From: Eledone cirrhosa | Taxonomy: Eukaryota | DNA length: 64,000 nucleotides | Direction: 5' to 3' | Assembly: GCA_964016885.1 (NCBI GenBank) | Contig: OZ024741.1 | Coordinates: forward strand, 361,646,001 to 361,710,000 | Shown here: positions 182-61,300 of the stretch, one piece after another | Position numbering within the stretch: position 1 is the stretch's first letter | Layout: the number at the start of each line of letters is the position of its first letter | The notes under the pieces: model-generated | Database searches by the model: none | What the model was told of the DNA's origin: nothing | Seen by the model: the letters and a program-made list of their open reading frames with translations, nothing else | Translations under genes and position numbers: made by a program

Positions 182-27744
<27,563 letters not shown>

Positions 27745-32714: not shown

Positions 32715-35422
32715 CAGGGGTTCCAAAACTTTTTTGCATCATCACCCAATTTCACATGGAAAAATTTCCACCATCCACTTGTAAAGTAAATGTTTAAAAG
32801 CATACTATAAATGATTGGTAAATGTTTGTTACTGGTTCATAAACTGACTTTATGATGTAGGAAAAAAATACCGAAGGGAGATAACAAATAACGTTGACTT
32901 GTGCTGCTGCTACTACCATATTAACCCTTTAGCATTTACATTACTCCACTATTATATTTTCATGGTAAAGGCTTTATCTCATATAATTATCTCATGTAAT
33001 ATGGAACCTACACAATTTTGATGATGTTATTATTCATTTTGAGAACAATACCTTAATGTCTGTATGAGTGGCCGGTTATGGCCAGTTTGAACAGAAAGAG
33101 GTGAGAGAATTCTTGCCGGATATGGCCAGTTTAAATGCTAAAGGGTTAAAGAACAAATGAAAGCAAACTCAACAATTTAAAACTGTATTCTATTAAATTT
33201 CATTAGATGAGGATTTGATGTCACTATACTTTGATGATTCCACAAGCCATGTTAACCGTGAAGCCAATTCTGCATTGCAGCTTCATTGTCATTTTGTAAA
33301 TCTATCAATTATTCTTGCACATTGTCTTCACAATCGATTACTTGGACTTCAAATGGGTTTATGAACCAAACTGGAACAGGCAATGTGATAATATCATGAA
33401 ATCACTGTACCATGTCATCATGCAATGATTGCAAATAATCATTGAAACTGGTAACGTTGATATCTTGAAATGTTCATCTTATATAGTGTTAATTTAGAAA
33501 TGAAGGCAATGATGGATGATTTACAGTTGACAAGCGTGTTTTATCTTCCCTGCAATAGTGTATCGAGGTCATTCAGTTTGGCAAATATGTCGCTAAGGAA
33601 ACATATCACATTTTGAAGCAATCAGTGAAGTAGATAGTGGAGTATTTTGAAGATAAATTATTTCCCACTGAAATCTGTAGAGCTGTCTTTCTATAAATTT
33701 ACCAAAAATTTATTGTTGTATCGAACAGTTTGACAAAACGGACAACATAGTTACCTTTTGATAACCATCGTATTTCATTATGGTACAAAAGCCTCACATT
33801 GTCATCATCATTATCAAGACACAGTTGAAAGATTAGTTCAGACAAAGAATTTGATTTTAGCTTATTCACAGTTTCAATAACTAACTGTAGTACATCACTA
33901 AGCTTGCCATTCATATTTTTTTCCAGTGAACTGTGAAAACAGGATGCGAAAGTTCAATTTTTAAGAGAGAAGAAAAACCTTTGTATCTACTTACAAAGCT
34001 GACACTCCATCAGATGCACAGGCAACAATATTGTTCAATGTTCATTATAAAATAACTTCAATAAATCTGAAATAGACATGCCTTTTGAGTCAAGCAACAA
34101 TTGATCAGTGAACATCATCTCATCACAAGGTTTCATAAAAAAACGAACATACTCCATCATCAAACATTGACTTCTCACAACTGTTGATTTGTCAACTTGC
34201 ATGGAAAATTAACAAATCTGGAGATTATAGATGAGTTGATATTTGATGTTGGTGGCTATTTCATCTATATGTGGAGAAATTGTGTTATTACTAAGTGGAA
34301 TTGTCTTCATAATTGTGTCAGGCTTTTTATGTATTACAGTTGACAGAACTTCTTCAATATTACATCAAAGTAATGTTTCTCCTATCGTGTGGAACTCACT
34401 GGCTTTTGTGACCAGTAACACAAGATCAACATTTTCCACTTTCCAAATGAGGTCTAAGTTGTAAGAAATATGACAAAGGTTTTTCCTTCCTGTCAGTATG
34501 CTTAGAATATAAATTATACTTTAAGAGTGGCAGTTTCATGGCTTTGTTCCTTAGAGTTTGGTTGTATATAAGATACAGCTAATTGAATGCTCTGATGAGA
34601 AGCGACAAATCGATAAGATAAATTATTATTGCTGTATTGATGACAAATTTCCTTAAATGGAGGCATTGGGGTGTTTAAAAATCGCACAATAGACAGAGAA
34701 ATTATAGGAACAATAGATAATTGAATTTTCGTTCACCAACGAAGTTCGTTTTCAATAATCCACAAACAAGAGAACACAAGAAGATTGCAATCAGTTGGTA
34801 ATCAATACAATCCAACAACTTCAAGTGGCTGTCTGTTTATATGAGTATGTGCATTAAGCTATGAACAGGTCCCATTTTAGGATTCTCATATTTTGTCTGG
34901 CATTGTTGTCCACACCTTCTCATTTAACACCTGACATCAGAGTTCTTAGAGATCATCACCTGTGTTAATTTTATGTGTGATCTCTCTATACTGCCAACAA
35001 TGACAAGTTTATCCTGAAGTCACTTCTTAATTTTAATGGCAAAGTTGTTCTCGATCTTACCAAATCTGATTTATATTCGAAAAAAGAAAATGTTATTTCG
35101 TCCAAAGAATTATTTGAATATCAATGACCTTTCTCAAAACTATAGGAAATACCAAAATGTTCCTTGTTTAAGGGGATGTTTATATTCTATTTAGGAATGT
35201 GGCCCAGTTATTCCCATTCAATCTCTTGTATTTTTTTTATGCAGGTTCTTTGCATATCTTTTTTCAGGTAGGATTTATTGAAATACCTTCTTAATACTCA
35301 AAATCCTATATCACCCACCAAAATTTCCAATTGATCACCATTTTCTCTTCAGTTGCTCATTGTTCACCCAAACGTTGAAATTGGCCACTAGCAGGTGATA
35401 TCGTCCAGGTTGGGAGACCCTG
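32715..35422 (-). mobile_element. hAT (Buster/Charlie, ZBED5-like) transposon with decayed transposase
   Basis: Ends caggggttccaaaact and aggttgggagaccctg; perfect 8-bp TSD ATTTAATT (32707-32714, 35423-35430); minus-strand LLYHNEIRWLSKG and BED-like N-terminus (HQYS..NKAMK) near 34650. Confidence 0.9.
32921..33149. mobile_element. piggyBac-like MITE, unexpanded copy 2, nested in the hAT
   Basis: TTAA|ccctttagcattta...taaatgctaaaggg|TTAA perfect TIR. Confidence 0.9.
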
Positions 35423-37211: not shown

Positions 37212-40200
37212 ATCATCATCATCATCATCATCGTTTAACATCCATCTTCCACGCTAGCATGGGTTTGGACGGGAATTTTCCCACTTGAGGCAAGATTGGT
37301 TGTCTTGCTTGTATAGGACTGTCTGGCGGATTTTCTACGGCTGGATGCCCTTCCTAACACCAACCATGTTTACAGTGTGGACTGGGAGGTTTTTACCGTG
37401 TTACCTACACGGCCACATTACAGCGTGGACTGTGTGTTTTTTTGTCGTGACACCTGCACGACCTCATTTATTTAGGACTGGATGTTGTGGTACCAACATA
37501 ACTTTACATTGAAAGGGGGTGGTGTGGATGGGGTGGGGGTATATTTTGGTAAGAGGTGCCTACTGACTGTAGGTTTCGCTTTGCACTTAGGCAAGGTGGG
37601 TCTTCTGTATTACTGCGTAGCGCCAAAGATTTCAGTCCAGTGACATTGTCTTGGAGAGGTGTAAGTGTGTGAGGTCGGAATTTATCAAGTCGTCCCAGGT
37701 TTTTCTGGGTCTGCCTAATCCGTGGCTACCGACTATTTTTATTGCCCTGCTCTTTTTTATACAGCTGTCGTCTTTCATGCGCATCACGTGACCATACCAA
37801 CGTAGTCTTCTCTCGAGTAAACAGCATCTGATCCGTCTTATTCCTAATTTCTCACTTAGTTCATTTATGCTTTGCCGTTCACGTATATTACACATCCAAC
37901 GGAGCATGCAAGCTTCGTTCCTCTCCAGTCTGCATAGATCCTCTGCACACAATGCCCAAGTCTCACTGCCATGTAACATTGCTGTTCGTATGCAGGCATC
38001 ATACAGCCTGCCTTTCATTTTTAGAGAGAAACCTTTAGCGGCCAATAGTGGTATAAGCTCTCTGAACTTTTTCCATTCTGTTCTGACTCTAGCTACTGTA
38101 CTTTCGGAGCACCCTCCACCACTGCTGATTTTGTCGCCCAGGTAACGGAAGGTGTCCACTATTTCTATAGAACCATCTGTGCAATGGAATGGGTTAGTAT
38201 TCTGTGGGCACTTGCTGCTACTTATTGCACCTGAGCACCGGCCACATATAAAATCTATATTCTTAGTTAGCTTACCTGTGATCCCACTACATCTTTTATG
38301 CACCCATACTTTGCATTTGGGACATAAAATGGAGTTTCTGCCTACTCCTTTCCTACACACTGAGCATGGCCATTTCCCGGATGGGACTGGTGCCCTATTT
38401 TCCTTCCTACATACTATAACTTTAGTCTTAGACAAGTTAACTTTAAGGCCATTTGATTCTAGGCCATGCTTGGAATTTCTTCTCTAGTTCAGCCATTGAT
38501 TCAGCTATGAGCATTAGATCATCTGCGTATAGGAGTTCCCATGGGCAGCCGATCTTGAACTCCTCTGTTATAGCCTGAAGGGCAATAATAAGATGGAGCC
38601 CTGATGAACACCAACTTTTATGCTAAACTCTTCACTATATTCATTGTTAATTCTAACCTTGCTGACTGTTTCTTTATACATGGCTTGTATAGCTCTCACA
38701 AGCCATTCATCAACACCTAGTTTTCTGAGAGCCCACCAGATAATGGGGCGTGGGATTCTGTCAAAGGCTTTCTCCAAGTCAACAAAAGCTAAGTATAGGG
38801 GTTTACTTTTAGCTAGGTACTTCTCCTGTAGTTGTCGTACAATGAAAAGAGCGTCTGTGGTACTTTTGCCTGACACAAAACCGAACTGCATTTCATCTAG
38901 ATCAATTCTCTCTCTGGTTAGTTGCGCTATTACTTTTTCTGTGACCTTCATGACCTGGTCAATTAATTTAATGCGTCTATAGTTTCCCCTATCTAGGGCA
39001 TCTTCTTTACCCTTGTAGTAGTTAATGATGATGCTGCTATTCCAGTCCTTCGGTACGACCCCATTCTGTATGACTTGGTTTACTATCCGGGTGACCATAG
39101 TGTGTCCCACCCTTCCAGATGCTTTCAGCATTTCAGCAACTATTTCCGAAGGCCCAGCCGCCTTACCCGTCTTCATATCTTTGATTGCCTTACTTATTAT
39201 ACTACCTTCAACTTGCACTGCTGGTCCCTCTATTGGATTGATGTGGGGGAGACTGTCTTTCTCCCATTTATTCTCCTCATTTAGTAGCCTTTCCTAGTGA
39301 CACTTTCAAGCTACCTTCTTATCAGCGTCAGTGATGGCAAGTGCACCATCATCATTAAGGACACACTTCTCCCCGACAATATCACGTTGCCTAACAATCC
39401 TCACACATTGCCTAACAATGCTGAACACCTCACGTTTTTGGTCCTCGTGTTGTAGAACATGCTTGAACTTTCTTTCCTTTGCTTCCCTTCTTGCGAAGTA
39501 CACTTGTCTTCTAGCTTCCCTCCTGGCCACTTGCTAGTCTTCTCTACTTCCCCCATCCCACCATACTTTCCAAGCCTGCTTTTTGGCCTTGATTGACTCC
39601 TCCACCTTACTATTCCACCACCACGTTACTCTCTTCCTGTCTATAGGTCTGCTCTAGCCACAGGCTTCATCTGTCACCTTCAGCAGGTTAGCTTCAGGAA
39701 TTCCCACTGTTCCTCTATATTGTACGACTCTAATTGCTCTTCCTTACTGTCGAAAGCATCAAGTAATATGCTTTTAAATTTATTACTGGCTGAGGATAGT
39801 CCTCCTCTGTTGTCGAGTACGTCTTGTCCTGATTATGAGGTCACTAACTATGAGTCTATGTTGGGAGGTGCATTCTTCATGGGGGAGGGATTTAGTGTTT
39901 ACAACAGACACTCTGTCACGTCTTCTGGTAAGGATATAATCTATCTGACTGGCGTGTTCCCCTGATCTATAGGTGATCAAGTGATTGTCTCCTTTTTTGA
40001 AGTTAGTGTTACAGATAGTTAGGTTATTTGCATCACAGAATTCCAGGATTCTGGAGCCTTCCTCATTTCTAGTACCAAACCCATAGCCTCCATGGATTCC
40101 GTCATAGCCATCACAATGTTGTCCAACGTGACCATTTAGGTCGCCAGCAATAATTATGTAGTCATTGTCGGTTATTTGGGAGGTAGTGAGCATTAATGAC

Positions 40201-40680
40201 TCATAGAATCTGTCTTTTATAATGCCAGGCAGTCCGGATTGGGGTGCGTATGCAGATATTATTGTCACAGTAGTTATATTTAGAACAAGTCTTATTTAAT
40301 TATTCTGTCGATCACTCTATTTACTTATCTGCCCATTTTTCAGCTAGTATGATTCCTACTCCACCCAGCCCATTGTTATTTCCCACCCAGAAAAGCTTAT
40401 AGCATCGTTTTTTACCCACAATGAATCTAGCAGATCCACCCCTCCACCTGGTCTCTTGGATACAGCAAACATCAACCTCCTTACGTTCAAGCATTTCTAC
40501 AACCTCGTTAGAGTGACCTTTTAAGGTGCCTACATTCATGGTACCAACAACCGAAATAAAGAGGAGGAGTCCTTGCATTTTCGTCCGGCAGCATAAGGTG
40601 AATTTGTCTTTTTCTTTGGCATTGTCACTGAGTGTCCAGATTTTTCAGATTCTCCAGAATTCCGTAGTCCATCCATCATA
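37212..40680 (-). mobile_element. Near full-length RTE LINE family B (APE endonuclease + RT + PHD-like insert), pseudogenised
   Basis: VGTMNVGTL..IQETRW, SAYAPQ, GDLNGHVG, QIDYIL, SQHRL; FVDLEKAFDR, GVHQGS, LLYADD (minus strand ~38520), FRYLG; (GAT)n tail; several frameshifts and stops. Confidence 0.95.
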
Positions 40681-43949: not shown

Positions 43950-44430
43950 CTATTCAACAAAAAACCCAGTAATGGTAACAAACAATAAATAATTCAACAG
44001 AAAATCCCATTAATTACTTCATCTACAGAATATCCAAGATTACATCTTCTCTGTGAAAATATTGGCATTGTACCTTGTCAAAGAAGGTGAATTACTATCC
44101 TGCTTGTGTGACATTCCTAGATACATTGATGTCAATAACACAGATTTGTAGGAGAGGAGGCGTAGTTCACTAAATTGAACTTAGTAAATTATTGGTATTT
44201 CTTTGATTTGATCAACTCGGAGTGGGGGTGTGGGGTGAAAGGCAGAATTGACACCAGAGAGATTCTAAGTCAGAAAATAGAAGAATAAAAATACTTTCAA
44301 TGAGCCAGTACACAGAGTATGAAATACAGGGTGCAGTTATGACTATGTTAGTAAGAGGACCCCTGTGTCTGTGTTTGCTTCCACTGCCCTGCATCATGCA
44401 GTATTTGTGCAAATCTTCTGTCAATGTATT
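43950..44430 (-). mobile_element. Possible very old Penelope-like RT fragment
   Basis: Frame-jumping ..FCLSPH..PS.IK.TNNLL..D(I)TSMY..SHKQ loosely resembles PSYIKDTN.FL..DV.SLYTNIPH. Confidence 0.3.
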
Positions 44431-44547
44431 GTGGTGAAAGATGTAAAATATTGAATACTGATAAAAACACTGATCAATCAGTGTTTTTGGATAAATATAA
44501 TTTGTGGTATTTGTTCTACTTAAGTTGGCCAGACATTCTTAACATCA

Positions 44548-47500
44548 TTAACCCTTTAGCATTTAAACCGGCCGTATCCGGCTAGAATTCTCTCACCTTT
44601 TTCTGTTTAAATCGGCTGTAACTGGCCACTCATAGTGATGTTAAAGCATTGTTCTCAAAATAAATAACATCAAAATCTCATAGATTCCATATTATGTGAA
44701 ATAATTATGTGAGGTAAAGCCTTTACTGTGAAAATACAATAGTATATATAGAGTAATGTAAATGCTATGTGAGGTAAAGCCTTTACTGTGAAAATACAAT
44801 AGTATATATAGAGTAATGTAAATGTTATGTGAGGTAAAGCCTTTACTGTGAAAATACAATAGTATATATAGAGTAATGTAAATGTTATGTGAGGTAAAGC
44901 CTTTACTGTGAAAATACAATAGTTATATATAGAGTAATGTAAATGTTATGTGAGGTAAAGCCTTTACTGTGAAAATACAATAGTTATATATAGAGTAATG
45001 TAAATGTTTTGTGAGGTAAAGCCTTTACTGTGAAAATACAATAGTATATATAGAGTAATGTAAATGTTATGTGAGGTAAAGCCTTTACTGTGAAAATACA
45101 ATAGTATATATAGAGTAATGTAAATGCTATGTGAGGTAAAGCCTTTACTGTGAAAATAAAATAGTATATATAGAGTAATGTAAATGTTATGTGAGGTAAA
45201 GCCTTTACTGTGAAAATACAATAGTATATATAGAGTAATGTAAATGTTATGTGAGGTAAAGCCTTTACTGTGAAAATACAATAGTATATATAGAGTAATG
45301 TAAATGCTATGTGAGGTAAAGCCTTTACTGTGAAAATACAATAGTATATATAGAGTAATGTAAATGTTATGTGAGGTAAAGCCTTTACTGTGAAAATACA
45401 ATAGTATATATAGAGCAATGTAAATGCTATGTGAGGTAAAGCCCTTACTGTGAAAATACAATAGTATATATATAGAGTAATGTAAATGTTATGTGAGGTA
45501 AAGCCTTTACTGTGGAAATACAATAGTATATATATAGAGTAATATAAATGTTATGTGAGGTAAAGCCTTTACTGTGTAAATACATAGTATATATATAGAG
45601 TAATGTAAATGTTATGTGAGGTAAAGCCTTTACTGTGAAAATACAATAGTATATATATAGAGTAATGTAAATGTTATGTGAGGTAAAGCCTTTACTGTGA
45701 AAATACAATAGTATATATATAGAGTAATGTAAATGTTATGTGAGGTAAAGCCTTTACTGTGAAAATACAATAGTTATATATAGAGCAATGTAAATGTTAT
45801 GTGAGGTAAAGCCTTTACTGTGAAAATACAATAGTATATATAGAGCAATGTAAATGTTATGTGAGGTAAAGCCTTTACTGTGAAAATACAATAGTATATA
45901 TAGAGTAATGTAAATGTTATGTGAGGTAAAGCCTTTACTGTGAAAATACAATAGTATATATAGAGTAATGTAAATGTTATGTGAGGTAAAGCCTTTACTG
46001 TGAAAATACAATATTATATAGAGTAATGTAAATGTTTTGTGAGGTAAAGCCTTTACTGTGAAAATACAATAGTATATATAGAGTAATGTAAATGTTATGT
46101 GAGGTAAAGCCTTTACTGTGAAAATACAATAGTATATATAGAGTAATGTAAATGCTATGTGAGGTAAAGCCTTTACTGTGAAAATACAATAGTATATATA
46201 GAGTAATGTAAATGTTTTGTGAGGTAAAGTCTTTACTGTGAAAATACAATAGTATATATAGAGCAATGTAAATGTTATGTGAGGTAAAGCCTTTACTGTG
46301 AAAATACAATAGTATATATAGAGCAATGTAAATGTTATGTGAGGTAAAGCCTTTACTGTGAAAATACAACAGTATATATAGAGTAATGTAAATGTTATGT
46401 GAGGTAAAGCCTTTACTGTGAAAATACAATAGTATATATAGAGCAATGTAAATGCTATGTGAGGTAAAGCCTTTATTGTGAAAATACAATAGTATATATA
46501 TAGAGTAATGTAAATGTTATGTGAGGTAAAGCCTTTACTGTGGAAATACAATAGTATATATATAGAGTAATATAAATGTTATGTGAGGTAAAGCCTTTAC
46601 TGTGAAAATACATAGTATATATATAGAGTAATGTAAATGTTATGTGAGGTAAAGCCTTTACTGTGAAAATACAATAGTATATATATAGAGTAATGTAAAT
46701 GTTATGTGAGGTAAAGCCTTTACTGTGAAAATACAATAGTATATATATAGAGCAATGTAAATGTTATGTGAGGTAAAGCCTTTACTGTGAAAATACAATA
46801 GTTATATAGAGCAATGTAAATGTTATGTGAGGTAAAGCCTTTACTGTGAAAATACAATAGTTATATAGAGTAATGTAAATGTTATATGAGGTAAAGCCTT
46901 TACTGTGAAAATACAATAGTATATATAGAGCAATGTAAATGCTATGTGAGGTAAAGCCTTTACTGTGAAAATACAATAGTATATATATAGAGTAATGTAA
47001 ATGTTATGTGAGGTAAAGCCTTTACTGTGAAAATACAATAGTATATATATAGAGTAATGTAAATGTTATGTGTGGTAAAGCCTTTACTGTGAAAATACAA
47101 TAGTTATATATAGAGCAATGTAAATGTTATGTGAGGTAAAGCCTTTACTGTGAAAATACAATAGTATATATAGAGCAATGTAAATGCTATGTGAGGTAAA
47201 GCCTTTACTGTGAAAATACAATAGTATATATATAGAGTAATGTAAATGTTATGTGAGGTAAAGCCTTTACTGTGAAAATACAATAGTATATATATAGAGT
47301 AATGTAAATGTTATGTGAGGTAAAGCCTTTACTGTGAAAATACAATAGTATATATAGAGCAATGTAAATGTTATGTGAGGTAAAGCCTTTACTGTGAAAA
47401 TACAATAGTTATATAGAGCAATGTAAATGTTATGTGAGGTAAAGCCTTTACTGTGAAAATACAATAGTTATATAGAGTAATGTAAATGTTATGTGAGGTA

Positions 47501-49196
47501 AAGCCTTTACTGTGAAAATACAATAGTATATATAGAGCAATGTAAATGCTATGTGAGGTAAAGCCTTTACTGTGAAAATACAATAGTATATATATAGAGT
47601 AATGTAAATGTTATGTGAGGTAAAGCCTTTACTGTGAAAATACAATAGTATATATATAGAGTAATGTAAATGTTATGTGAGGTAAAGCCTTTACTGTGAA
47701 AATACAATAGTTATATATAGAGCAATGTAAATGTTATGTGAGGTAAAGCCTTTACTGTGAAAATACAATAGTATATATAGAGCAATGTAAATGCTATGTG
47801 AGGTAAAGCCTTTACTGTGAAAATATAATAGTATATATATAGAGTAATGTAAATGTTATGTGAGGTAAAGCCTTTACTGTGAAAATACAATAGTATATAT
47901 ATAGAGTAATGTAAATGTTATGTGAGGTAAAGCCTTTACTGTGAAAATACAATAGTATATATAGAGCAATGTAAATGTTATGTGAGGTAAAGCCTTTACT
48001 GTGAAAATACAATAGTTATATAGAGCAATGTAAATGTTATGTGAGGTAAAGCCTTTACTGTGAAAATAAAATAGTTATATAGAGTAATGTAAATGTTATG
48101 TGAGGTAAAGCCTTTACTGTGAAAATTCAATAGTATATATAGAGCAATGTAAATGCTATGTGAGGTAAAGCCTTTACTGTGAAAATACAATAGTATATAT
48201 ATAGAGTAATGTAAATGTTATGTGAGGTAAAGTCTTTACTGTGAAAATACAATAGTATATATATAGAGTAATGTAAATGTTATGTGTGGTAAAGCCTTTA
48301 CTGTGAAAATACAATAGTTATATATAGAGCAATGTAAATGTTATGTGAGGTAAAGCCTTTACTGTGAAAATACAATAGTATATATAGAGCAATGTAAATG
48401 CTATGTGAGGTAAAGCCTTTACTGTGAAAATACAATAGTATATATATAGAGTAATGTAAATGTTATGTGAGGTAAAGCCTTTACTGTGAAAATACAATAG
48501 TATATATAGAGCAATGTAAATGTTATGTGAGGTAAAGCCTTTACTGTGAAAATACAATAGTATATATAGAGTAATGTAAATGTTATGTGAGGTAAAGCCT
48601 TTACTGTGAAAATACAATAGTATATATAGAGCAATGTAAATGTTATGTGAGGTAAAGCCTTTACTGTGAAAATACAATAGTATATATAGAGCAATGTAAA
48701 TGTTATGTGAGGTAAAGCCTTTACTGTGAAAATACAATAGTTATATAGAGTAATGTAAATGTTATGTGAGGTAAAGCCTTTACTGTGAAAATACAATAGT
48801 ATATATATAGAGTAATGTAAATGTTATGTGAGGTAAAGCCTTTACTGTGAAAATACAATAGTTATATATAGAGCAATGTAAATGTTATGTGAGGTAAAGC
48901 CTTTACTGTGAAAATACAATAGTATATATAGAGTAATGTAAATGTTATGTGAGGTAAAGCCTTTACTGTGAAAATACAATAGTATATATAGAGCAATGTA
49001 AATGTTATGTGAGGTAAAGCCTTTACTGTGAAAATACAATAGTATATATAGAGTAATGTAACTGTTATGTGAGGTAAAGCCTTTACTGTGAAAATACAAT
49101 AGTATATATAGAGCAATGTAAATGCTATGTGAGGTAAAGCCTTTACTGTGAAAATACAATAGTATATATAGAGTAATGTAAATGCTAAAGAGTTCA
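44548..49196. mobile_element. piggyBac-like MITE inflated by an internal satellite
   Basis: Left end TTAA|ccctttagcatttaaaccggcc; right end taaatgctaaagag|ttca; body is the reverse complement of 32921-33149. Confidence 0.9.
44706..49187. repeat. ~60-bp satellite, ~74 units (tatgtgaggtaaagcctttactgtgaaaatacaatagtatatatagagtaatgtaaatg[t/c])
   Basis: Period 59-62 bp depending on the internal (TA)n length. Confidence 0.97.
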
Positions 49197-49342: not shown

Positions 49343-52300
49343 CTTCTCTTCCCTAGATACCTGACGCATGTGTTTATGATGTCTCTCTCTTCCCTAGATA
49401 CCAGAAGCATGTGTTTATGATGTCTCTCTCTTCCCTAGATACCACAAGCATGTGTTTATGATGTCTCTCATCCCTAGATACCTAAAGTATGTGTTTATGA
49501 TGTCTCTCGTCCCTAGATACCAGAAGCATGTGTTTATGATGTCTCTCTTCCTTAGATACCAGAAGCATGTGTTTATGATGTCTCTCTTCCCTAGATACCA
49601 CAAGCATGTGTTTATGATGTCTCTCTTCCCTACATACCAGAAGCATGTGTTTATGATGTCTCTCTTCCCTAGATACCAGAAGCATGTGTTTATGATGTTT
49701 CCCATCCCTATATACCTAAAGCATGTGTCTATAATATCTTTCTCTTCCCTTGATACATGGAGTATGTGTTTATGATGTCTCTCTTCCCTAGATACCAGAA
49801 GCATGTGTTTATGATGTCTCTTTTCCCTAGATACCAGAAGCATGTGTTTATGATGTCTCTCTTCCCTAGATACCAGAAGCATGTGTTTATGATGTCTCTC
49901 TTCCCTAGATATCTGAAGAATGTCTTTATGATGTTTCTCTTCCCTAGATACCTAAAGCATGTCTTTATGATGTTTCTCTTCCCTAGACAGCTAAAGCATG
50001 TGTCTATGATGTCTCTCTCTTCCCTAAATACCAGAGGCATGTGTTTATGATGTCTCTCTTCCCTAGATACCAGAAGCATGTGTTTATGATGTCTCTCTTC
50101 CCTAGATACCAGAAGCATGTGTTTATGATGTCTCTCTTCCCTAAATACCAGCAGCATGTCTTTATGATGTCTCTCTCTTCCCTAGATACCAGAAGCATGT
50201 GTTTATGATGTCTCTCTTCCCTAGATACCAGAAGCGTGTGTTTATGATGTCTCTCTTCCCTAGATACCAGAAGCATGTGTTTATGATGTCTCTCATCCCT
50301 AGATACCAGAAGCATGTGTTTATGATGTCTCTCTTCTCTAGATACCAGAAGCATGTGTTTATGATGTCTCTCTCTTCCCTAGATACCAGAAGCATGTGTT
50401 TATGATGTCTCTCTATTCCCTAGATACCAGAAGCATGTATTTATGATGTCTCTCTTCCCTAGATACCAGAAGCATGTGTTTATGATGTCTCTCATCCCTA
50501 GATACCAGAAGCATGTGTTTATGATGTCTCTCTTCCCTAGATACCAGAAGCATGTCTGTATGATGTTTCTCTTCCCTAGACACCTAAAGCATGTGTTTAT
50601 GATGTCTCTCTTCCATTGATACATGGAGCATGTGTTTATGATGTCTCTCTTCCCTAGATACCTAAAGCATGTGTTTATGATGGCTCTCTTCCCTAGATAC
50701 CTAAAGCATGAGTTTATGATGTCTCTCTTTGCTAGATACCAGAAGCATGTGTTTATGATGTCTCTCTTCCCTAGATACCAGAAGCATGTGTTTATGATGT
50801 TTCTCTTCTCTAGATACCTAAAGCATGTATTTATGATGTCTCTCTTCTCTAGATACCACAAGCATGTGTTTATGATGTCTCTCTCTTCCATAAATACCAG
50901 AAGCATGTGTTTATGATGTCTCTCTTAGATACCAGGAGCATGTGTTTATGATATCTCTCTTCCCTAGCTACCAGAAGCATGTGTTTATGATGTCTCTCTT
51001 CCACAGATACCAGAAGCATGTATTTATGATGTCTCTCTTCCCTAGATACCAGAAGCATGTGTTTATGATGTCTCTATCTTCCCTAGATACTAGAAGCATG
51101 TGTTTATGATGTCTCTCTTCCCTAGATACCAGAAGCATGTGTTTATGATGCCTCTCTTCCCTAGATACATAAAGCATATCTTTATGATGTTTCTCTTCCC
51201 TAGACACCTAAAGCATGTGTTTATGATGTCTCTCTTCCATTGATACATGGAGCATGTGTTTATGATGTCTCTCTTCGCTAGATACCTAAAGCATGTGTTT
51301 ATGATGTCCCTCTTCCCTAGATACCTAAAGCATGTGTTTATGAAGTCCCTCTTCGCTAGATACCAGAAGCACGTGTTTATGATGTCTCTCTTCCCTAGAT
51401 ACCAGAAGCATGTGTTTATGATGTTTCTCTTCCCTAGATACCTAAAGCATGTGTTTATGATGTCTCTCTTCCCTAGATACCAGGACATGTGTTTATGATG
51501 TCTCTCTTCCCTAGATACCACAAGCATGTGTTTATGATGTCTCTCTCTTCCCTAGATACCAGAAGCATGTGTTTATGATGTCTCTCTTCCCTAGATACCA
51601 GAAGCATGTGTTTATGATGTCTCTCTTCCCTAGATACCAGAAGCATGTGTTTATGATGTCTCTCTTCCCTAGATACCAGAAGCATGTGTTTATGATGTCT
51701 CTCTTCCCTAGATACCAGATGCATGTGTTTATGATGTCTCTCTTCCCTAGATACCAGAAGCATGTGTTTATGATGTCTCTCTTCCCTAGATACCAGAAGC
51801 ATGTGTTTATGATGTCTCTCTTCCCTAGATATCTGAAGAATGTCTTTATGATGTTTCTCTTCCCTAGATACCTAAAGCATGTCTTTATGATGTTTCTCTT
51901 CCCTAGACAGCTAAAGCATGTGTCTATGATGTGTCGCTCTTCCCTAAATACCAGAGGCATGTGTTTATGATGTCTCTCTTCCCTAGATACCAGAAGCATG
52001 TGTTTATGATGTCTCTCATCCCTAGATACCAGAAGCATGTGTTTATGATGTCTCTCATCCCTAGATACCAGAAGCATGTGTTTATGATGTCTCTCTTCCC
52101 TAGATACCAGAAGCATGTATTTATGATGTCTCTCTTCCCTAGATACCAGAAGCATGTGTTTATGATGTCTCTATCTTCCCTAGATACTAGAAGCATGTGT
52201 TTATGATGTCTCTCTTCCCTAGATACCAGAAGCATGTGTTTATGATGCCTCTCTTCCCTAGATACATAAAGCATATCTTTATGATGTTTCTCTTCCCTAG

Positions 52301-55300
52301 ACACCTAAAGCATGTGTTTATGATGTCTCTCTTCCATTGATACATGGAGCATGTGTTTATGATGTCTCTCTTCGCTAGATACCTAAAGCATGTGTTTATG
52401 ATGTCCCTCTTCCCTAGATACCTAAAGCATGTGTTTATGAAGTCCCTCTTCGCTAGATACCAGAAGCACGTGTTTATGATGTCTCTCTTCCCTAGATACC
52501 AGAAGCATGTGTTTATGATGTTTCTCTTCCCTAGATACCTAAAGCATGTGTTTATGATGTCTCTCTTCCCTAGATACCAGGACATGTGTTTATGATGTCT
52601 CTCTTCCCTAGATACCACAAGCATGTGTTTATGATGTCTCTCTCTTCCCTAGATACCAGAAGCATGTGTTTATGATGTCTCTCTTCCCTAGATACCAGAA
52701 GCATGTGTTTATGATGTCTCTCTTCCCTAGATACCAGAAGCATGTGTTTATGATGTCTCTCTTCCCTAGATACCAGAAGCATGTGTTTATGATGTCTCTC
52801 TTCCCTAGATACCAGATGCATGTGTTTATGATGTCTCTCTTCCCTAGATACCAGAAGCATGTGTTTATGATGTCTCTCTTCCCTAGATACCAGAAGCATG
52901 TGTTTATGATGTCTCTCTTCCCTAGATATCTGAAGAATGTCTTTATGATGTTTCTCTTCCCTAGATACCTAAAGCATGTCTTTATGATGTTTCTCTTCCC
53001 TAGACAGCTAAAGCATGTGTCTATGATGTGTCTCTCTTCCCTAAATACCAGAGGCATGTGTTTATGATGTCTCTCTTCCCTAGATACCAGAAGCATGTGT
53101 TTATGATGTCTCTCTTCCCTAGATACCAGAAGCATAGGTTTATGATGTCTCTCTTCCCTAGATACCAGAAGCATGTGTTTATGATGTCTCTCTTCCCTAG
53201 ATACCAGAAGCATGTGTTTATGATGTCTCTCATCCCTAGATACCAGAAGCATGTGTTTATGATGTCTCTCTTCCCTAGATACCAGAAGCATGTGTTTATG
53301 ATGTCTCTCTCTTCCCTAGATACCAGAAGCATGTGTTTATGATGTCTCTCTCTTCCCTAGATACCAGAAGCATGTATTTATGATGTCTCTCTTCCCTAGA
53401 TACCAGAAGCATGTGTTTATGATGTCTCTCATCCCTAGATACCAGAAGCATGTGTTTATGATGTCTCTCTTCCCTAGATACCAGAAGCATGTCTGTATGA
53501 TGTTTCTCTTCCCTAGACACCTAAAGCATGTGTTTATGATGTCTCTCTTCCATTGATACATGGAGCATGTGTTTATGATGTCTCTCTTCCCTAGATACCT
53601 AAAGCATGTGTTTATGATGGCTCTCTTCCCTAGATACCTAAAGCATGTGTTTATGATGTCTCTCTTTGCTAGATACCAGAAGCATGTGTTTATGATGTCT
53701 CTCTTCCCTAGATACCAGAAGCATGTGTTTATGATGTTTCTCTTCTCTAGATACCTAAAGCATGTATTTATGATGTCTCTCTTCTCTAGATACCACAAGC
53801 ATGTGTTTATGATGTCTCTCTCTTCCATAAATACCAGAAGCATGTGTTTATGATGTCTCTCTTAGATACCAGGAGCATGTGTTTATGATGTCTCTCTTCC
53901 CTAGATACCAGAAGCATGTGTTTATGATGTTTTTCGTCCCTACATACCTAAAGCATGTGTTTATGATGTCTCTCTTCCCTAGCTACCAGAAGCATGTGTT
54001 TATGATGTCTCTCTTCCATAGATACCAGAAGCATGTATTTATGATGTCTCTCTTCCCTAGATACCAGAAGCATGTGTTTATGATGTTTTTCGTCCCTACA
54101 TACCTAAAGCATGTGTTTATGATGTCTCTCTTCCCTAGATACCAGAAGCATGTGTTTATGATGCCTCTCTTCCCTAGATACATAAAGCATATCTTTATGA
54201 TGTTTCTCTTCCCTAGACACCTAAAGCATGTGTTTATGATGTCTCTCTTCGATTGATACATGGAGCATGTGTTTATGATGTCTCTCTTCGCTAGATACCT
54301 AAAGCATGTGTTTATGATGTCCCTCTTCCCTAGATACCTAAAGCATGTGTTTATGAAGTCCCTCTTCGCTAGATACCAGAAGCACGTGTTTATGATGTCT
54401 CTCTTCCCTAGATACCAGAAGCATGTGTTTATGATGTTTCTCTTCCCTAGATACCTAAAGCATGTGTTTATGATGTCTCTCTTCCCTAGATACCAGGACA
54501 TGTGTTTATGATGTCTCTCTTCCCTAGATACCACAAGCATGTGTTTATGATGTCTCTCTCTTCCCTAGATACCAGAAGCATGTGTTTATGATGTCTCTCT
54601 TCCCTAGATACCAGAAGCATGTGTTTATGATGTCTCTCTTCCCTAGATACCAGAAGCATGGGTTTATGATGTCTCTATTCCCTAGATACCAGAAGCATGT
54701 GTTTATGATGTCTCTCTTCCCTAGATACCAGATGCATGTGTTTATGATGTATCTCTTCCCTAGATACCAGAAGCATGTGTTTATGATGTTTCTCTTCCCT
54801 AGATACCAGAAGCATGTGTTTATGATGTTTCTCGTCCCTAGATACCTAAAGCATGTGTTTATGATGTCTCTCTTCCCTAGATACCAGAAGAATGTGTTTA
54901 TGATGTCTCTCTCTTCCCTAGATACCAGAAGCATGTCTTTATGATGTCTCTCTTCCCTAGATACCAGCAGCATGTCTTTTTGATGTCTCTCTCTTCCCTA
55001 GATACCAGAAGCATGTGTTTATGATGTCTCTCTTCCCTAGATACCAGAAGCATGTGTTTATGATGTCTCTCTTCCCTAGATACCAGAAGCATGTGTTTAT
55101 GATGTCTCTCATCCCTAGATACCAGAAGCATGTGTTTATAATGTCTCTCTTCCCTAGATACCAGAAGCATGTGTTTATGATGTCTCTCTCTTCCCTAGAT
55201 ACCAGAAGCATGTGTTTATGAAGTCTCTCTCTTCCCTAGATACCAGAAGCATGTGTTTATGATGTTTCTCTTCCCTAGATACCTAAAGCATGTGTTTATG

Positions 55301-58300
55301 ATATCTCTCTTCCCTAGATACCAGGACATGTGTTTATGATATCTCTCTTCCCTAGATACCACAAGCATGTGTTTATGATGTCTCTCTCTTCCCTAAATAC
55401 CAGAAGCATGTGTTTATGATGTCTATCTTCCCTAGATACCAGAAACATGTGTTTATGATGTCTATTTTCCCTAGATACCAGAAGCATGTGTTTATGATGT
55501 CTCTCTTCCCTAGATACCAGAAGAATGTGTTTATGATGTCTCTCTTCCCTAGATACCAGATGCATGTGTTTATGATGTCTTTCTTCCCTAGATACCAGAA
55601 GCATGTGTTTATGATGTCTCTCTTCCCTAGATACCAGAAGCATGTGTTTATGATGTCTCTCATCCCTAGATACCAGAAGCATGTGTTTATGATGTCTCTC
55701 TTCCCTAGATACCAGAAGCATGTGTTTATGATGTTTTTCGTCCCTACATACCTAAAGCATGTGTTTATGATGTCTCTCTTCCCTAGATACCAGAAGCATG
55801 TGTTTATGATGCCTCTCTTCCCTAGATACATAAAGCATATCTTTATGATGTTTCTCTTCCGTAGACACCTAAAGCATGTGTTTATGATGTCTCTCTTCCA
55901 TTGATACATGGAGCATGTGTTTATGATGTCTCTCTTCGCTAGATACCTAAAGCATGTGTTTATGATGTCCCTCTTCCCTAGATACCTAAAGCATGTGTTT
56001 ATGAAGTCCCTCTTCGCTAGATACCAGAAGCACGTGTTTATGATGTCTCTCTTCCCTAGATACCAGAAGCATGTGTTTATGATGGTTCTCTTCCCTAGAT
56101 ACCTAAAGCATGTGTTTATGATGTCTCTCTTCCCTAGATACCAGGACATGTGTTTATGATGTCTCTCTTCCCTAGATACCACAAGCATGTGTTTATGATG
56201 TCTCTCTCTTCCCTAGATACCAGAAGCATGTGTTTATGATGTCTCTCTTCCCTAGATACCAGAAGCATGTGTTTATGATGTCTCTCTTCCCTAGATACCA
56301 GAAACATGTGTTTATGATGTCTCTCTTCCCTAGATACCAGAAGCATGTGTTTATGATGTCTCTCTTCCCTAGATACCAGATGCATGTGTTTATGATGTAT
56401 CTCTTCCCTAGATACCAGAAGCATGTGTTTATGATGTTTCTCTTCCCTAGATACCAGAAGCATGTGTTTATGATGTTTCTCGTCCCTAGATACCTAAAGC
56501 ATGTGTTTATGATGTCTCTCTTCCCTAGATACCAGAAGAATGTGTTTATGATGTCTCTCTCTTCCCTAGATACCAGAAGCATGTCTTTATGATGTCTCTC
56601 TTCCCTAGATACCAGCAGCATGTCTTTTTGATGTCTCTCTCTTCCCTAGATACCAGAAGCATGTGTTTATGATGTCTCTCTTCCCTAGATACCAGAAGCA
56701 TGTGTTTATGATGTCTCTCTTCCCTAGATACCAGAAGCATGTGTTTATGATGTCTCTCATCCCTAGATACCAGAAGCATGTGTTTATAATGTCTCTCTTC
56801 CATAGATACCAGAAGCATGTGTTTATGATGTCTCTCTCTTCCCTAGATACCAGAAGCATGTGTTTATGATGTCTCTCTCTTCCCTAGATACCAGAAGCAT
56901 GTGTTTATGATGTTTCTCTTCCCTAGATACCTAAAGCATGTGTTTATGATATCTCTCTTCCCTAGATACCAGGACATGTGTTTATGATATCTCTCTTCCC
57001 TAGATACCACAAGCATGTGTTTATGATGTCTCTCTCTTCCCTAAATACCAGAAGCATGTGTTTATGATGTCTATCTTCCCTAGATACCAGAAACATGTGT
57101 TTATGATGTCTATTTTCCCTAGATACCAGAAGCATGTGTTTATGATGTCTCTCTTCCCTAGATACCAGAAGAATGTGTTTATGATGTCTCTCTTCCCTAG
57201 ATACCAGATGCATGTGTTTATGATGTCTTTCTTCCCTAGATACCAGAAGCATGTGTTTATGATGTCTCTCTTCCCTAGATACCAGAAGCATGTGTTTATG
57301 ATGTCTCTCATCCCTAGATACCAGAAGCATGTGTTTATGATGTCTCTCTTCCCTAGATACCAGAAGCATGTGTTTATGATGTTTTTCGTCCCTACATACC
57401 TAAAGCATGTGTTTATGATGTCTCTCTTCCCTAGATACCAGAAGCATGTGTTTATGATGCCTCTCTTCCCTAGATACATAAAGCATATCTTTATGATGTT
57501 TCTCTTCCGTAGACACCTAAAGCATGTGTTTATGATGTCTCTCTTCCATTGATACATGGAGCATGTGTTTATGATGTCTCTCTTCGCTAGATACCTAAAG
57601 CATGTGTTTATGATGTCCCTCTTCCCTAGATACCTAAAGCATGTGTTTATGAAGTCCCTCTTCGCTAGATACCAGAAGCACGTGTTTATGATGTCTCTCT
57701 TCCCTAGATACCAGAAGCATGTGTTTATGATGGTTCTCTTCCCTAGATACCTAAAGCATGTGTTTATGATGTCTCTCTTCCCTAGATACCAGGACATGTG
57801 TTTATGATGTCTCTCTTCCCTAGATACCACAAGCATGTGTTTATGATGTCTCTCTCTTCCCTAGATACCAGAAGCATGTGTTTATGATGTCTCTCTTCCC
57901 TAGATACCAGAAGCATGTGTTTATGATGTCTCTCTTCCCTAGATACCAGAAACATGTGTTTATGATGTCTCTCTTCCCTAGATACCAGAAGCATGTGTTT
58001 ATGATGTCTCTCTTCCCTAGATACCAGATGCATGTGTTTATGATGTATCTCTTCCCTAGATACCAGAAGCATGTGTTTATGATGTTTCTCTTCCCTAGAT
58101 ACCAGAAGCATGTGTTTATGATGTTTCTCGTCCCTAGATACCTAAAGCATGTGTTTATGATGTCTCTCTTCCCTAGATACCAGAAGAATGTGTTTATGAT
58201 GTCTCTCTCTTCCCTAGATACCAGAAGCATGTGTTTATGATGTCTCTCTCTTCCCTAGATACCAGAAGCATGTGTTTATGATGTTTCTCTTCCCTAGATA

Positions 58301-61300
58301 CCTAAAGCATGTGTTTATGATATCTCTCTTCCCTAGATACCAGGACATGTGTTTATGATATCTCTCTTCCCTAGATACCACAAGCATGTGTTTATGATGT
58401 CTCTCTCTTCCCTAAATACCAGAAGCATGTGTTTATGATGTTTCTCATCCCTAGATACCTAAAGCATGTGTTTATGATGTCTCTCTTCCCTAGATACCAG
58501 AAGCATATGTTTATGATGTCTCTCTTCCCTAGATACCAGAAGCATGTGTTTATGACGTCTCTCTTTCCTATATACCAGGAGCATGTGTTTATGATGTCTC
58601 TCTTCCCTAGATATCACAAGCATGTGGTTATGATGTTTCTCATCCCTAGATACCTAAAGAATGTGTTTATGATGTCTCTCTTCCCTAGATACCAGAAGCA
58701 TGTGTTTATGATGTTTCTCTTCCCTAGATACCAGAAGCATGTGTTTATGATGTTTCTCGTCCCTAGATACCTAAAGCATGTGTTTATGATGCCTCTCTTC
58801 CCTAGATACCAGAAGCATGTGTTTATGATGTCTCTCTTCCCTACATACCAGAACCATGTGTTTATGATGTCTCTCTTCCCTAGATACCTAAAGCATGTCT
58901 CTATGATGTTTCTCTTCCCTAGACACCTAAAGCATGTGTTTATGATGTCTCTCTCTTCCCTAAATACCAGAAGCATGTGTTTATGATGTCTCTCTTCCCT
59001 AGATACCAGATGGATGTGTTTATGATGTCTCTCTTCCCTAGATACCTGAAGCATGTCTCTATGATGTTTCTCTTCCCTAGACACCTAAAGCATGTGTTTA
59101 TGATGTCTCTCATTCCTAGATACCAGAAGCATGTGTTTATGATGTCTCTCTTCCCTAGATACCAGAAGAATGTGTTTATGATGTCTCTCTTCCTTCGATA
59201 CCTAAAGCATCTCTTTATGATGTTTCTCATCCCTAGATACCTAAAGCATGTCTTTATGATGTTTCTCTTCCCTAGACAGCTAAAGCATGTCTCTATGATA
59301 TCTCTCTCTTCCCTAAATACTAGAAGCATGTGTTTATGATGTCTCTCTTCCCTAGACACCAGAAGCATGTGTTTATGATGTCTCTCTTCCCCCGATACCA
59401 GAAGCATGTGTTTATGATGTCTCTCTTCCCTAGATACCAGAAGCATGTGTTTATGATGTCTCTCTTCCCTAGATACCTAAAGCATGTCTCTATGATGTTT
59501 CTCTTCCCTAGACACCTAAAGCATGTGTTTATGATGTCTCTCTCTCCCCTAGATACCAGAAGCATGTGTTTATGATGTCTCTCTTCCCTAGATACCAGAA
59601 CCTTGTGTTTATGATGTCTCTCTTCCCTAGATACCAGAAGCATGTGTTTATGATGTCTCTCTCTTCCCTAGATACCAGAAGCATGTGTTTATGATGTCTC
59701 TCTTCCCCCGATACCAGAAGCATGTGTTTATGATATCTCTCTTCCCTAGATACCAGAAGCATGTGTTTATGATGTCTCTCATCCCTACATACCAGAAGCA
59801 TGTGTTTATGTTGTCTCTCTTCCCTAGATACCAGAAGCATGTGTTTATGATGTTTCTCGTCCCTACATACCGAAAGCATGTGTTTATGATGTCTCTCTTC
59901 CCTAGATACCAGAAGCATGTGTTTATGATGTCTCTCTTCCCTAGATACTTAAAGCATGTCTTTATGATGTTTCTCTTCCCTAGACACCTAAAGCATGTGT
60001 TTATGATGTCTCTCTTCCATTGATAGATGGAGCATGTGTTTATGATGTCTCTCTTCCCTAGATACCAGAAGCATGTGTATATGATGTTTCTCTTCCCTAG
60101 ATACCTAAAGCATGTGTTTATGATGTCTCTCTTCCCTAGATACCAGGACATGTGTTTATGATATCTCTCTTCCCTAGATACCACAAGCATGTGTTTATGA
60201 TGTCGCTCTCTTCCCTAAATACCAGAAGCATGTGTTTATGATGTCTCTCTTCCCTAGATACAAGAAGCATGTGTGTATGATGTCTATTTTCCCTAGATAC
60301 CAGAAGCATGTGTTTATGATGTCTCTCTTTCCTAGATACCTAAAGCATGTCTCTATGATATTTCTCTTCCCTAGACACCTAAAGCATGTGTTTATGATAT
60401 CTCTATTCCCTAGATACCAGAAGCATGTGTTTATGATGTCTCTCTTCCCTAGATACCAGAAGCATGTGTTTATGATGTCTCTCATCCCTAGATACCAGAA
60501 GCATGTGTTTATGATGTCTCTCTTCCCTAGATACCAGAAGCATGTGTTTATGATGTTTCTCGTCCCTACATACCTAAAGCATGTGTTTATGATGTCTCTC
60601 TTCCCTAGATACCAGAAGCATGTGTTTATGATGTCTCTCTTCCCTAGATACCAGAAGCATGTGTTTATGATGTTTCTCATCCCTAGATACAATAAAGCAT
60701 GTGTTTATGATGTCTCTCTTCCCTAGATACCAGAAGCATATGTTTATGATGTCTCTCTTCCCTAGATACCAGAAGCATGTGTTTATGACGTCTCTCTTTC
60801 CTATATACCAGAAGCATGTGTTTATGATGTCTCTCTTCCCTAGATATCACAAGCATGTGGTTATGATGTTTCTCATCCCTAGATACCTAAAGAATGTGTT
60901 TATGATGTCTCTCTTCCCTAGATACCAGAAGCATGTGTTTATGATGTTTCTCTTCCCTAGATACCAGAAGCATGTGTTTATGATGTTTCTCGTCCCTAGA
61001 TACCTAAAGCATGAGTTTATGATGTCTCTCTTCCCTAGATACCAGAAGAATGTGTTTATGATGTCTCTCTCTTCCCTAGATACCAGAAACATGTGTTTAT
61101 GATGTCTCTCCTCCCTAGATACCAGAAGCATGTGTTTATGATGTCTCTCTTCCCTAGATACCAGAAGCATGTGTTTATGATGTCTCTCTTCCCTACATAC
61201 CAGAAGCATGTGTTTATGATGTCTCTCTTCCCTAGATACCTAAAGCATGTCTGTATGATGTTTCTCTTCCCTAGACACCTAAAGCATGTGTTTATGATGT

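Follow-up and report, generated by a model that had tools for sequence, protein, structure and literature searches.

Transposons that harbour tandem repeats have been described in Xenopus. The miDNA4 family reportedly goes back to Scalvenzi and Pollet (2014) and the Xstir/Xmix elements to Hikosaka and Kawahara (2004), and the Tx1D element is said to contain internal tandem repeats that are targeted by the retrotransposon Tx1L. Published passages characterize miDNA4 as a Tc1/mariner miniature inverted-repeat transposable element, or MITE, of Xenopus tropicalis that carries a satellite, with one internal motif in 61% of its copies and arrays in others, and Xstir/Xmix as a system in which a tandem repeat is derived from internal MITE sequence (PMC12628747, PMC9659126, PMC12054243). 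In the passages available for Tx1L of Xenopus laevis, this element inserts in Tx1D, a non-autonomous piggyBac transposon (PMC4494074, PMC6719617, PMC1950540), and the CMITE elements of coral are described as piggyBac-like MITEs that form tandem arrays (PMC2872659). Two reviews of MITE-borne satellites leave piggyBac unmentioned in their text. Here we analyse a 64,000-nucleotide stretch of the Eledone cirrhosa genome (contig OZ024741.1, positions 361,646,001 to 361,710,000; hereafter the window) in which a 74-unit satellite array lies between the ends of a piggyBac-type MITE. Rather than an isolated conversion, the locus is a long member of a genome-wide, often array-bearing MITE family, and the repeat unit of this family is the target of a long interspersed nuclear element (LINE).

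The presence of a 74-unit array within TTAA/CCC-type MITE ends is a real observation. A tandem-repeat scan reports 74 copies of a 60-bp period with 96% matches, the length being that of the assembly. The element begins with TTAA (44548-44551) followed by CCCTTTAGCATTTA and ends with TAAATGCTAAAGAG followed by TTCA (49179-49196), a bracketing that a sequence-only reading of the window had noted and that the sequence bears out. At the right end, the terminal repeat and the target duplication each differ by a single change; the ends are only slightly decayed. Parsing at 74 anchors yielded 28 unit variants of 58-62 bp, whose mean pairwise divergence is 1.9%, compared with 6.8% between the body of the element and the family consensus. 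The right half of the array exhibits a higher-order period of 10 units (unit match at lag 10 of 0.35 versus 0.14 after shuffling, p 0.002 among 20 lags). With the array collapsed to a single unit, the element has a length of 229 bp. It can be aligned over its full extent with the copy at 32921-33149 (81%, 233 columns, E 2.7e-61); against the copy at 27256-27458 the identity is likewise 81%, over 198 columns (E 1e-47). These two neighbours had been taken for unexpanded siblings with the same terminal repeats. Both do align, on the minus strand and with one unit each, but the left terminal repeat of the 27256 copy is CCCTTTAATGTTCA, and both belong to subfamilies other than that of the array copy. 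The repeat unit had likewise been said to include the inner part of the terminal repeat; the inner right end does lie within it, but the form TAAATGCTA is present at only 13 of the 73 internal junctions, and TAAATGTTA was found 56 times.

Exact matches were counted across the 3.0-Gb genome, in which the window lies on contig C2, and reversed control queries returned 0 matches. The 26-nt left end occurs 3,441 times, the long-linker right end 6,628 times and the tandem junction 37,734 times; by rough extrapolation, the MITE may total some tens of thousands of copies. The sequence-only reading had proposed a search for other TTAA-bounded expanded copies, and a three-unit query revealed such copies on many contigs among the matches listed. 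Their 60-bp and 72-bp units are joined in a single register, and the dispersed copies, which have their ends in common, hold between 1 and 74 units. In two samples not selected for unit number, multi-unit copies made up 4 of the 30 first-listed left-end matches and 3 of 14 body matches in 59 spaced 10-kb windows, and about one in six copies sampled had at least three units. Of the complete copies, 17 of 28 with several units and 29 of 56 with one unit have kept both ends intact. The end-less array runs that were seen are split by LINE insertions, and loci L088 and L089 have flanks in common and represent a segmental duplicate. No match to the MITE body was found in the 26 of the 59 windows that fall mid-arm on the four largest contigs (C1-C4), and the MITE is common on small contigs.

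Several observations support the assignment of this family to the piggyBac MITEs, whose mobilisation is predicted. The 229-bp element is non-coding, has 14-bp terminal repeats of the CCC type and is present in high copy number, and TTAA flanks most of the 84 complete copies compared below. At locus L017, a copy nested in another MITE has duplicated its host's internal TTAA, which constitutes a true target duplication. A profile search of the genome with PF13843 gave 125 matching places, and 19 of the 30 first-listed places belong to one 2.5-2.6-kb family with TTAA-CCCTTTAGC ends that is 92.5-99.9% identical to the copy L094. Intact piggyBacs of 2,575 bp with matching ends occur in the genome. 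The L094 element has an open reading frame (ORF) of 558 amino acids with domains PF13843 and PF13842; the nearest solved relative of this transposase is the piggyBat transposase (PDB 9c0f, E 4e-56), and its named nearest relatives are from bivalves. The piggyBac call made earlier from the TTAA target and CCC ends is therefore upheld, and the suggested search for an autonomous element with the same terminal repeats gave one with matching ends. Among L091-L120 and L200-L239, no fewer than three additional piggyBac families (or subfamilies) have related TTAA-CCCTTT ends, and the left ends of one of them resemble the MITE subfamily of the 27256 copy. A further element, with a (CAT)n tail, was met repeatedly either within the linker of the MITE or within right ends of piggyBacs (L020, L053, L128, L226, L229).

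Nucleotides 1-163 of the 32921 copy are 69% identical to nucleotides 1-163 of L094 (E 1e-9), its right end shares 21 of 22 bases with the autonomous element, and the palindrome of the unit matches L094 nucleotides 157-182. As judged from these alignments, the MITE is composed of about 185 bp of piggyBac left end, a linker and about 20 bp of right end, and it goes back to the left end of an older piggyBac related to the intact one. Most of the unit comes from the parent's left-end region (nucleotides ~145-185), followed by the linker and then the inner right end; the unit therefore spans the deletion joint. The idea that the unit is the parent's right subterminal repeat was rejected on the same mapping.

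The position of the unit in the parent bears on its proposed function. In published passages on piggyBat, the left-end motifs G1LE and G2LE, at bp 11-16 and 55-60, are two needed dimer sites (PMC11707139). The MITE has TTTAAA at the same positions, in two modules 44 bp apart with a short direct repeat after each, and the autonomous element has TTCAAA there. The sequences differ from those of piggyBat, and the sites are predicted by position. Transposase dimer sites are thus predicted to lie in the unamplified left end, outside the unit, which does not support the earlier proposal that the array yields about 74 partial transposase sites. The proposed hairpin GTAAAG-C-CTTTAC is present as a palindrome with a loop of 1 nt, but the unit folds no better than shuffled sequences (-2.9 kcal/mol, z = -1.05). 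Hairpin-driven expansion was rejected, given that 26 of 200 shuffles fold equally well.

A tree was built from 84 complete copies (56 single-unit and 28 multi-unit), which are not a random sample and from which incomplete and duplicate loci were left out. Twenty-six short-linker copies, including the 32921 copy, form a supported clade without arrays, whereas multi-unit copies are scattered through the long-linker group in a manner that requires 15 changes, three of them forced by supported branches. The 27256 copy clusters with copies of 7 and 17 units. Genome-wide, the short-linker form gives 46 exact right ends and 4 junctions, and all 4 junctions reside at one locus whose body is of the long-linker type with a later, secondary deletion. 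No true array of the short-linker subfamily was found in the tree or among the genome-wide exact matches. Arrays therefore occur only in the long-linker lineage and have one common junction. Among 16 arrays with a long spacer, 14 have a 12-bp spacer that differs from the body of the same copy, so the tandem junction would mostly have been inherited or imported. A segment of a MITE has indeed become a satellite, as had been proposed, but an origin at this locus from a copy like its neighbours does not agree with a junction that occurs genome-wide and with neighbours from other subfamilies.

The subsequent growth of arrays seems to be a local affair. Private variants are fixed along individual arrays, and the contrast between a body at 6.8% and units at 1.9% divergence, together with the 10-unit period, makes it likely that the window array grew in place. 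For piggyBac elements, mutation of the terminal repeat and of TTAA should block excision. The window copy, in which the terminal GGG and the TTAA are both mutated, is predicted to be immobile now. The sequence-only reading had suggested that the array may have stayed mobilisable while its ends were intact; for this long array, the mutated right end speaks against it, as does the absence of a close sister, the nearest other copy being 93% identical among 40 scored. Short multi-unit forms probably were mobile.

Several arrays elsewhere in the genome are interrupted by a 5.6-kb LINE that lies antisense to the unit and is without a poly(A) tail. Its ORF1 has a CCHC knuckle (CX2CX4HX4C), and its ORF2 of ~1,145 amino acids carries a PF03372 endonuclease of the apurinic/apyrimidinic endonuclease (APE) type, a PF00078 reverse transcriptase (RT) and a PF13966 zinc region. 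The sequence ATAGAGT precedes 255 of 258 exact LINE 3ʹ ends, and 29 of the 30 first-listed 3ʹ ends adjoin a recognisable unit. By these junctions, the LINE inserts antisense at ATATAGAGT^AAT, with flanks far above the threshold of over 20% that a published passage uses to define target-specific LINEs (PMC4494074). Among 20 copies fetched, 19 are full-length and 97.7-99.9% identical to one reference copy, and eight have an ORF2 over 1,100 amino acids. All 19 full-length copies begin with the same 20-nt array-junction stretch, including the 12-bp spacer, which stands in place of 7 target bases; this head joint has 278 exact matches genome-wide. The truncated copy L291 has a 9-bp target duplication, and L320, a 43-bp truncated LINE in a one-unit MITE, has a duplication of 0-2 bp; both fit target-primed insertion. 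Because the hosts vary in body and unit variants, and because one array holds several LINEs, these copies are separate insertions and not a single composite that piggyBac transposed.

The nearest named RT relative of the LINE is from Argonauta hians (68%), and no named Tx1 sequence that could supply a clade name was among the database matches. Tandem runs of the LINE were seen at C1:4.22-4.26 Mb and C10:40.72-40.75 Mb, some separated by a single satellite unit, and the copies listed on contigs C1-C3 cluster near contig ends. L182 was rejected as a copy because the element there, within a GATA repeat, is diverged and of another kind, and L322, considered a one-unit host that the LINE had duplicated, proved to be a multi-unit host. 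The window contains no copy of the LINE; its array has 47 intact sites, and 27 of the 74 units carry GAGC instead. The absence is unremarkable, since fewer than one LINE per hundred junctions exists genome-wide. Escape mutation from the LINE was rejected as an explanation for the altered units, because the T>C change at the cut base affects 27 of 74 window units yet only 2 of 86 array runs, without general enrichment.

We consider it probable that the array represents the expanded right segment of a piggyBac MITE whose family bears 1 to 74 units at many loci, with cut-and-paste spread of short forms, growth in place of the window copy, and a LINE that inserts into the unit and ferries units between arrays. 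The junction would have formed in a master copy, on one or a few occasions, before its dispersal in an old burst. The last unit would always rebuild the right end, so arrays need not block excision, and short multi-unit forms could have spread by cut-and-paste. Arrays would then have been expanded and homogenised locally by slippage and unequal exchange, as suggested by the identity within arrays, the locus-private variants and the 10-unit period. The LINE, for its part, would be transcribed from upstream array DNA and joined at its 5ʹ end by homology, as for R2, for which a published passage describes stronger site-specific integration through co-transcription from flanking target DNA (PMC4494074). 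Annealing of the cDNA end to the next unit would restore a target and might sometimes import donor units. In four copies (L304, L305, L316 and L318), the downstream unit is free of the host's variants, and in the remaining 11 full-length LINEs other than the four discussed below this unit is uninformative. Gene conversion after insertion is the alternative explanation for such foreign units. A more ambitious scheme, in which the MITE supplies the satellite and the LINE nicks the unit, is transcribed from the array, regains a target at each full-length insertion and so seeds, spreads and homogenises units through an RNA intermediate to form a three-tier system, is offered only tentatively.

Some observations weigh against the favoured reading. 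The multi-unit copies do not form one clade and the bootstrap is unsettled, so a single origin is not shown. At L053 and L127, two of the 14 arrays with mismatched spacers, a single spacer was nevertheless taken from the body of the host copy. No recently transposed long array, in the sense of a near-identical pair at different sites, was found, the best values being 93% and 95% among 40 scored in each comparison, so that the case for mobile multi-unit forms is indirect. The intact piggyBac is just 69% like the MITE, and no closer autonomous parent was present among 70 of the 125 PF13843 places (40 beyond the first 30). In L306, L307, L312 and L322, a host-type unit follows the LINE. Finally, the LINE, with its high identity among copies, is younger than the MITE burst.

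A rather unlikely but related explanation is that the arrays were seeded by the LINE: transcripts with at least two units would enter MITEs that have one unit, and an array would be left once the LINE was lost through recombination between units, such that the LINE lineage and not cut-and-paste transposition spread the junction. It would account for arrays that are spread over MITE subfamilies yet confined to the lineage with the LINE target, and for the identity between the common 12-bp spacer and the LINE head; that head, however, is 7 bp short at the start of the junction, which a head of one unit therefore cannot generate. At L304 and L310, the LINE sits in unit 1 with several units after it, and the later units in L304 lack the private changes of the first, but the LINE occupies unit 1 at only 2 of 14 loci with intact left ends (among the first 30 listed), and edge units diverge in any satellite. 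Rare bases are also scarcer in the array consensus (23/1,510, 1.5%) than in the bodies of the same copies (214/4,017, 5.3%), although a consensus over units strips private changes anyway, and many arrays were chosen for likeness to the window array. Far less credible is local conversion of a one-unit MITE, driven by the hairpin, with 74 partial transposase sites and continued mobility. The first junction has the C of the host's right end in the window copy and in L060, L037 and L136, and the share of multi-unit copies with both ends intact would also agree with it. Against this stand the single junction register of all 37,734 matches with a microhomology of only ~2 bp, the insignificant hairpin, the predicted dimer sites outside the unit, the mutated right end and the missing sister copy. 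That misassembly has stretched a shorter array to 74 units deserves next to no credence. No short-read contig bridging the right junction was found, the left end being linked to its unique flank by contigs from one sample (44100-44571, with 0-1 differences). Against an artefact, the 28 unit variants follow an ordered 10-unit pattern, tandem joints occur in a second sample (run X4) in 96 raw reads that represent the family as a whole rather than this locus, and the roughly estimated depth ratio of unit to left end is ~12:1 in X1-X3 versus 11:1 for exact counts in the assembly.

Coordinates of the array-bearing element and of related MITE copies in the window
Feature	Position	Strand	Basis
Left TTAA target-site duplication	44548..44551	+	Sequence; nested copy L017 shows TTAA doubled on insertion
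Left terminal inverted repeat CCCTTTAGCATTTA, 14 bp	44552..44565	+	23/23 bp identical to left end of piggyBac copy L110
Two left-end modules, predicted transposase dimer sites, unamplified	44562..44630	+	Positions matching autonomous element and piggyBat
MITE body, homologous to autonomous piggyBac left end	44552..44704	+	6.8% from family consensus
74-unit tandem array, 58-62 bp units	44705..49184	+	Repeat scan, unit comparison
First of 47 intact LINE insertion sites, ATATAGAGT^AAT	44746..44757	+	Cut inferred after 44754
Mutated right terminal inverted repeat (GAG in place of GGG)	49179..49192	+	Sequence
Right target-site duplication, mutated: TTCA	49193..49196	+	Sequence
One-unit MITE, TTTAATGTTC subfamily (7- and 17-unit members elsewhere)	27256..27458	-	Clade support 100/100
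One-unit MITE, short-linker subfamily, without LINE target	32921..33149	-	Alignment, tree, site scan

Other features also reside in the window. A separate 39-bp satellite starts 150 bp to the right of the array (49345-64000) and continues into the next 10 kb (L133) for a total of at least 24.6 kb, unmatched in the other fetched loci. A 28-bp array of 77 copies (15649-17812) lies inside a decayed repeat that resembles a LINE RT fragment, and because its flanks are 37 bp apart in L207, a transposon was probably the birthplace of this satellite too. A broken LINE with matches to an endonuclease, an RT and a PHD finger occupies 37632-40295 on the minus strand. Probable exons of a Ser/Arg-rich protein gene are found at 2939-8259 on the plus strand; the two frames scanned gave no Pfam match, and we presume a resemblance to CLASRP. 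A 33-bp minisatellite of ~9 copies lies at 3734-4035.

MITE-borne satellites are already known from miDNA4 and Xstir, and by sequence the Eledone family agrees with this type in its variable unit number and in the homogenisation within arrays. The array alone is one more such satellite; the unexpected part is a young, site-specific LINE that is headed by the array junction. Literature searches yielded no description of this family or of a satellite-headed LINE, although Repbase, Dfam, subscription journals or supplements may hold one. The published passages on miDNA4, to which the Eledone family is likened, describe one motif in most copies and arrays in others, arrays that grow while ends decay, and an enrichment of multi-unit copies near chromosome ends. 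However, miDNA4 is a Tc1/mariner element proposed to have captured an existing repeat, whereas the Eledone unit consists of the transposon's own left-end DNA plus right end, in a piggyBac that has an intact relative and a LINE targeting the unit. Xstir/Xmix, as described, also shows MITE, array and composite forms side by side, but it is a different element for which a stem-loop mechanism was proposed, and the hairpin is not significant here. In the CMITE account the MITEs themselves form the arrays, whereas in the Eledone family it is an internal segment that is multiplied between a single pair of ends.

A single genome holds the parent element, MITEs with one unit, arrays of all sizes and an intact site-specific LINE, so that the spread of dispersed satellites and their lasting likeness between chromosomes can be tested directly. 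If the LINE does carry units, it would offer an RNA-mediated route to the concerted evolution of satellites. With its near-total site specificity and mostly full-length copies, it is also a candidate for studies of targeted integration. The LINE resembles Tx1-Mar and SINEU in Mariner-N4_AMi, which are described as LINEs that target a non-autonomous DNA transposon (PMC4494074), and it resembles R2 in the proposed transcription from flanking target DNA; the passages of that source include no amplified target array for these elements, whereas an array is present here. The closest likeness is to Tx1L and Tx1D, insofar as the sources describe them: a two-ORF non-long-terminal-repeat retrotransposon with an APE endonuclease occupies a specific site in a non-autonomous piggyBac. 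The Eledone LINE differs in its array-junction head, in the replacement of 7 target bases without duplication and in the foreign units that follow some copies. Judged by architecture and specificity, from which we infer the likeness to Tx1, the LINE and its MITE appear to be an independent parallel to the Xenopus pair Tx1L and Tx1D.

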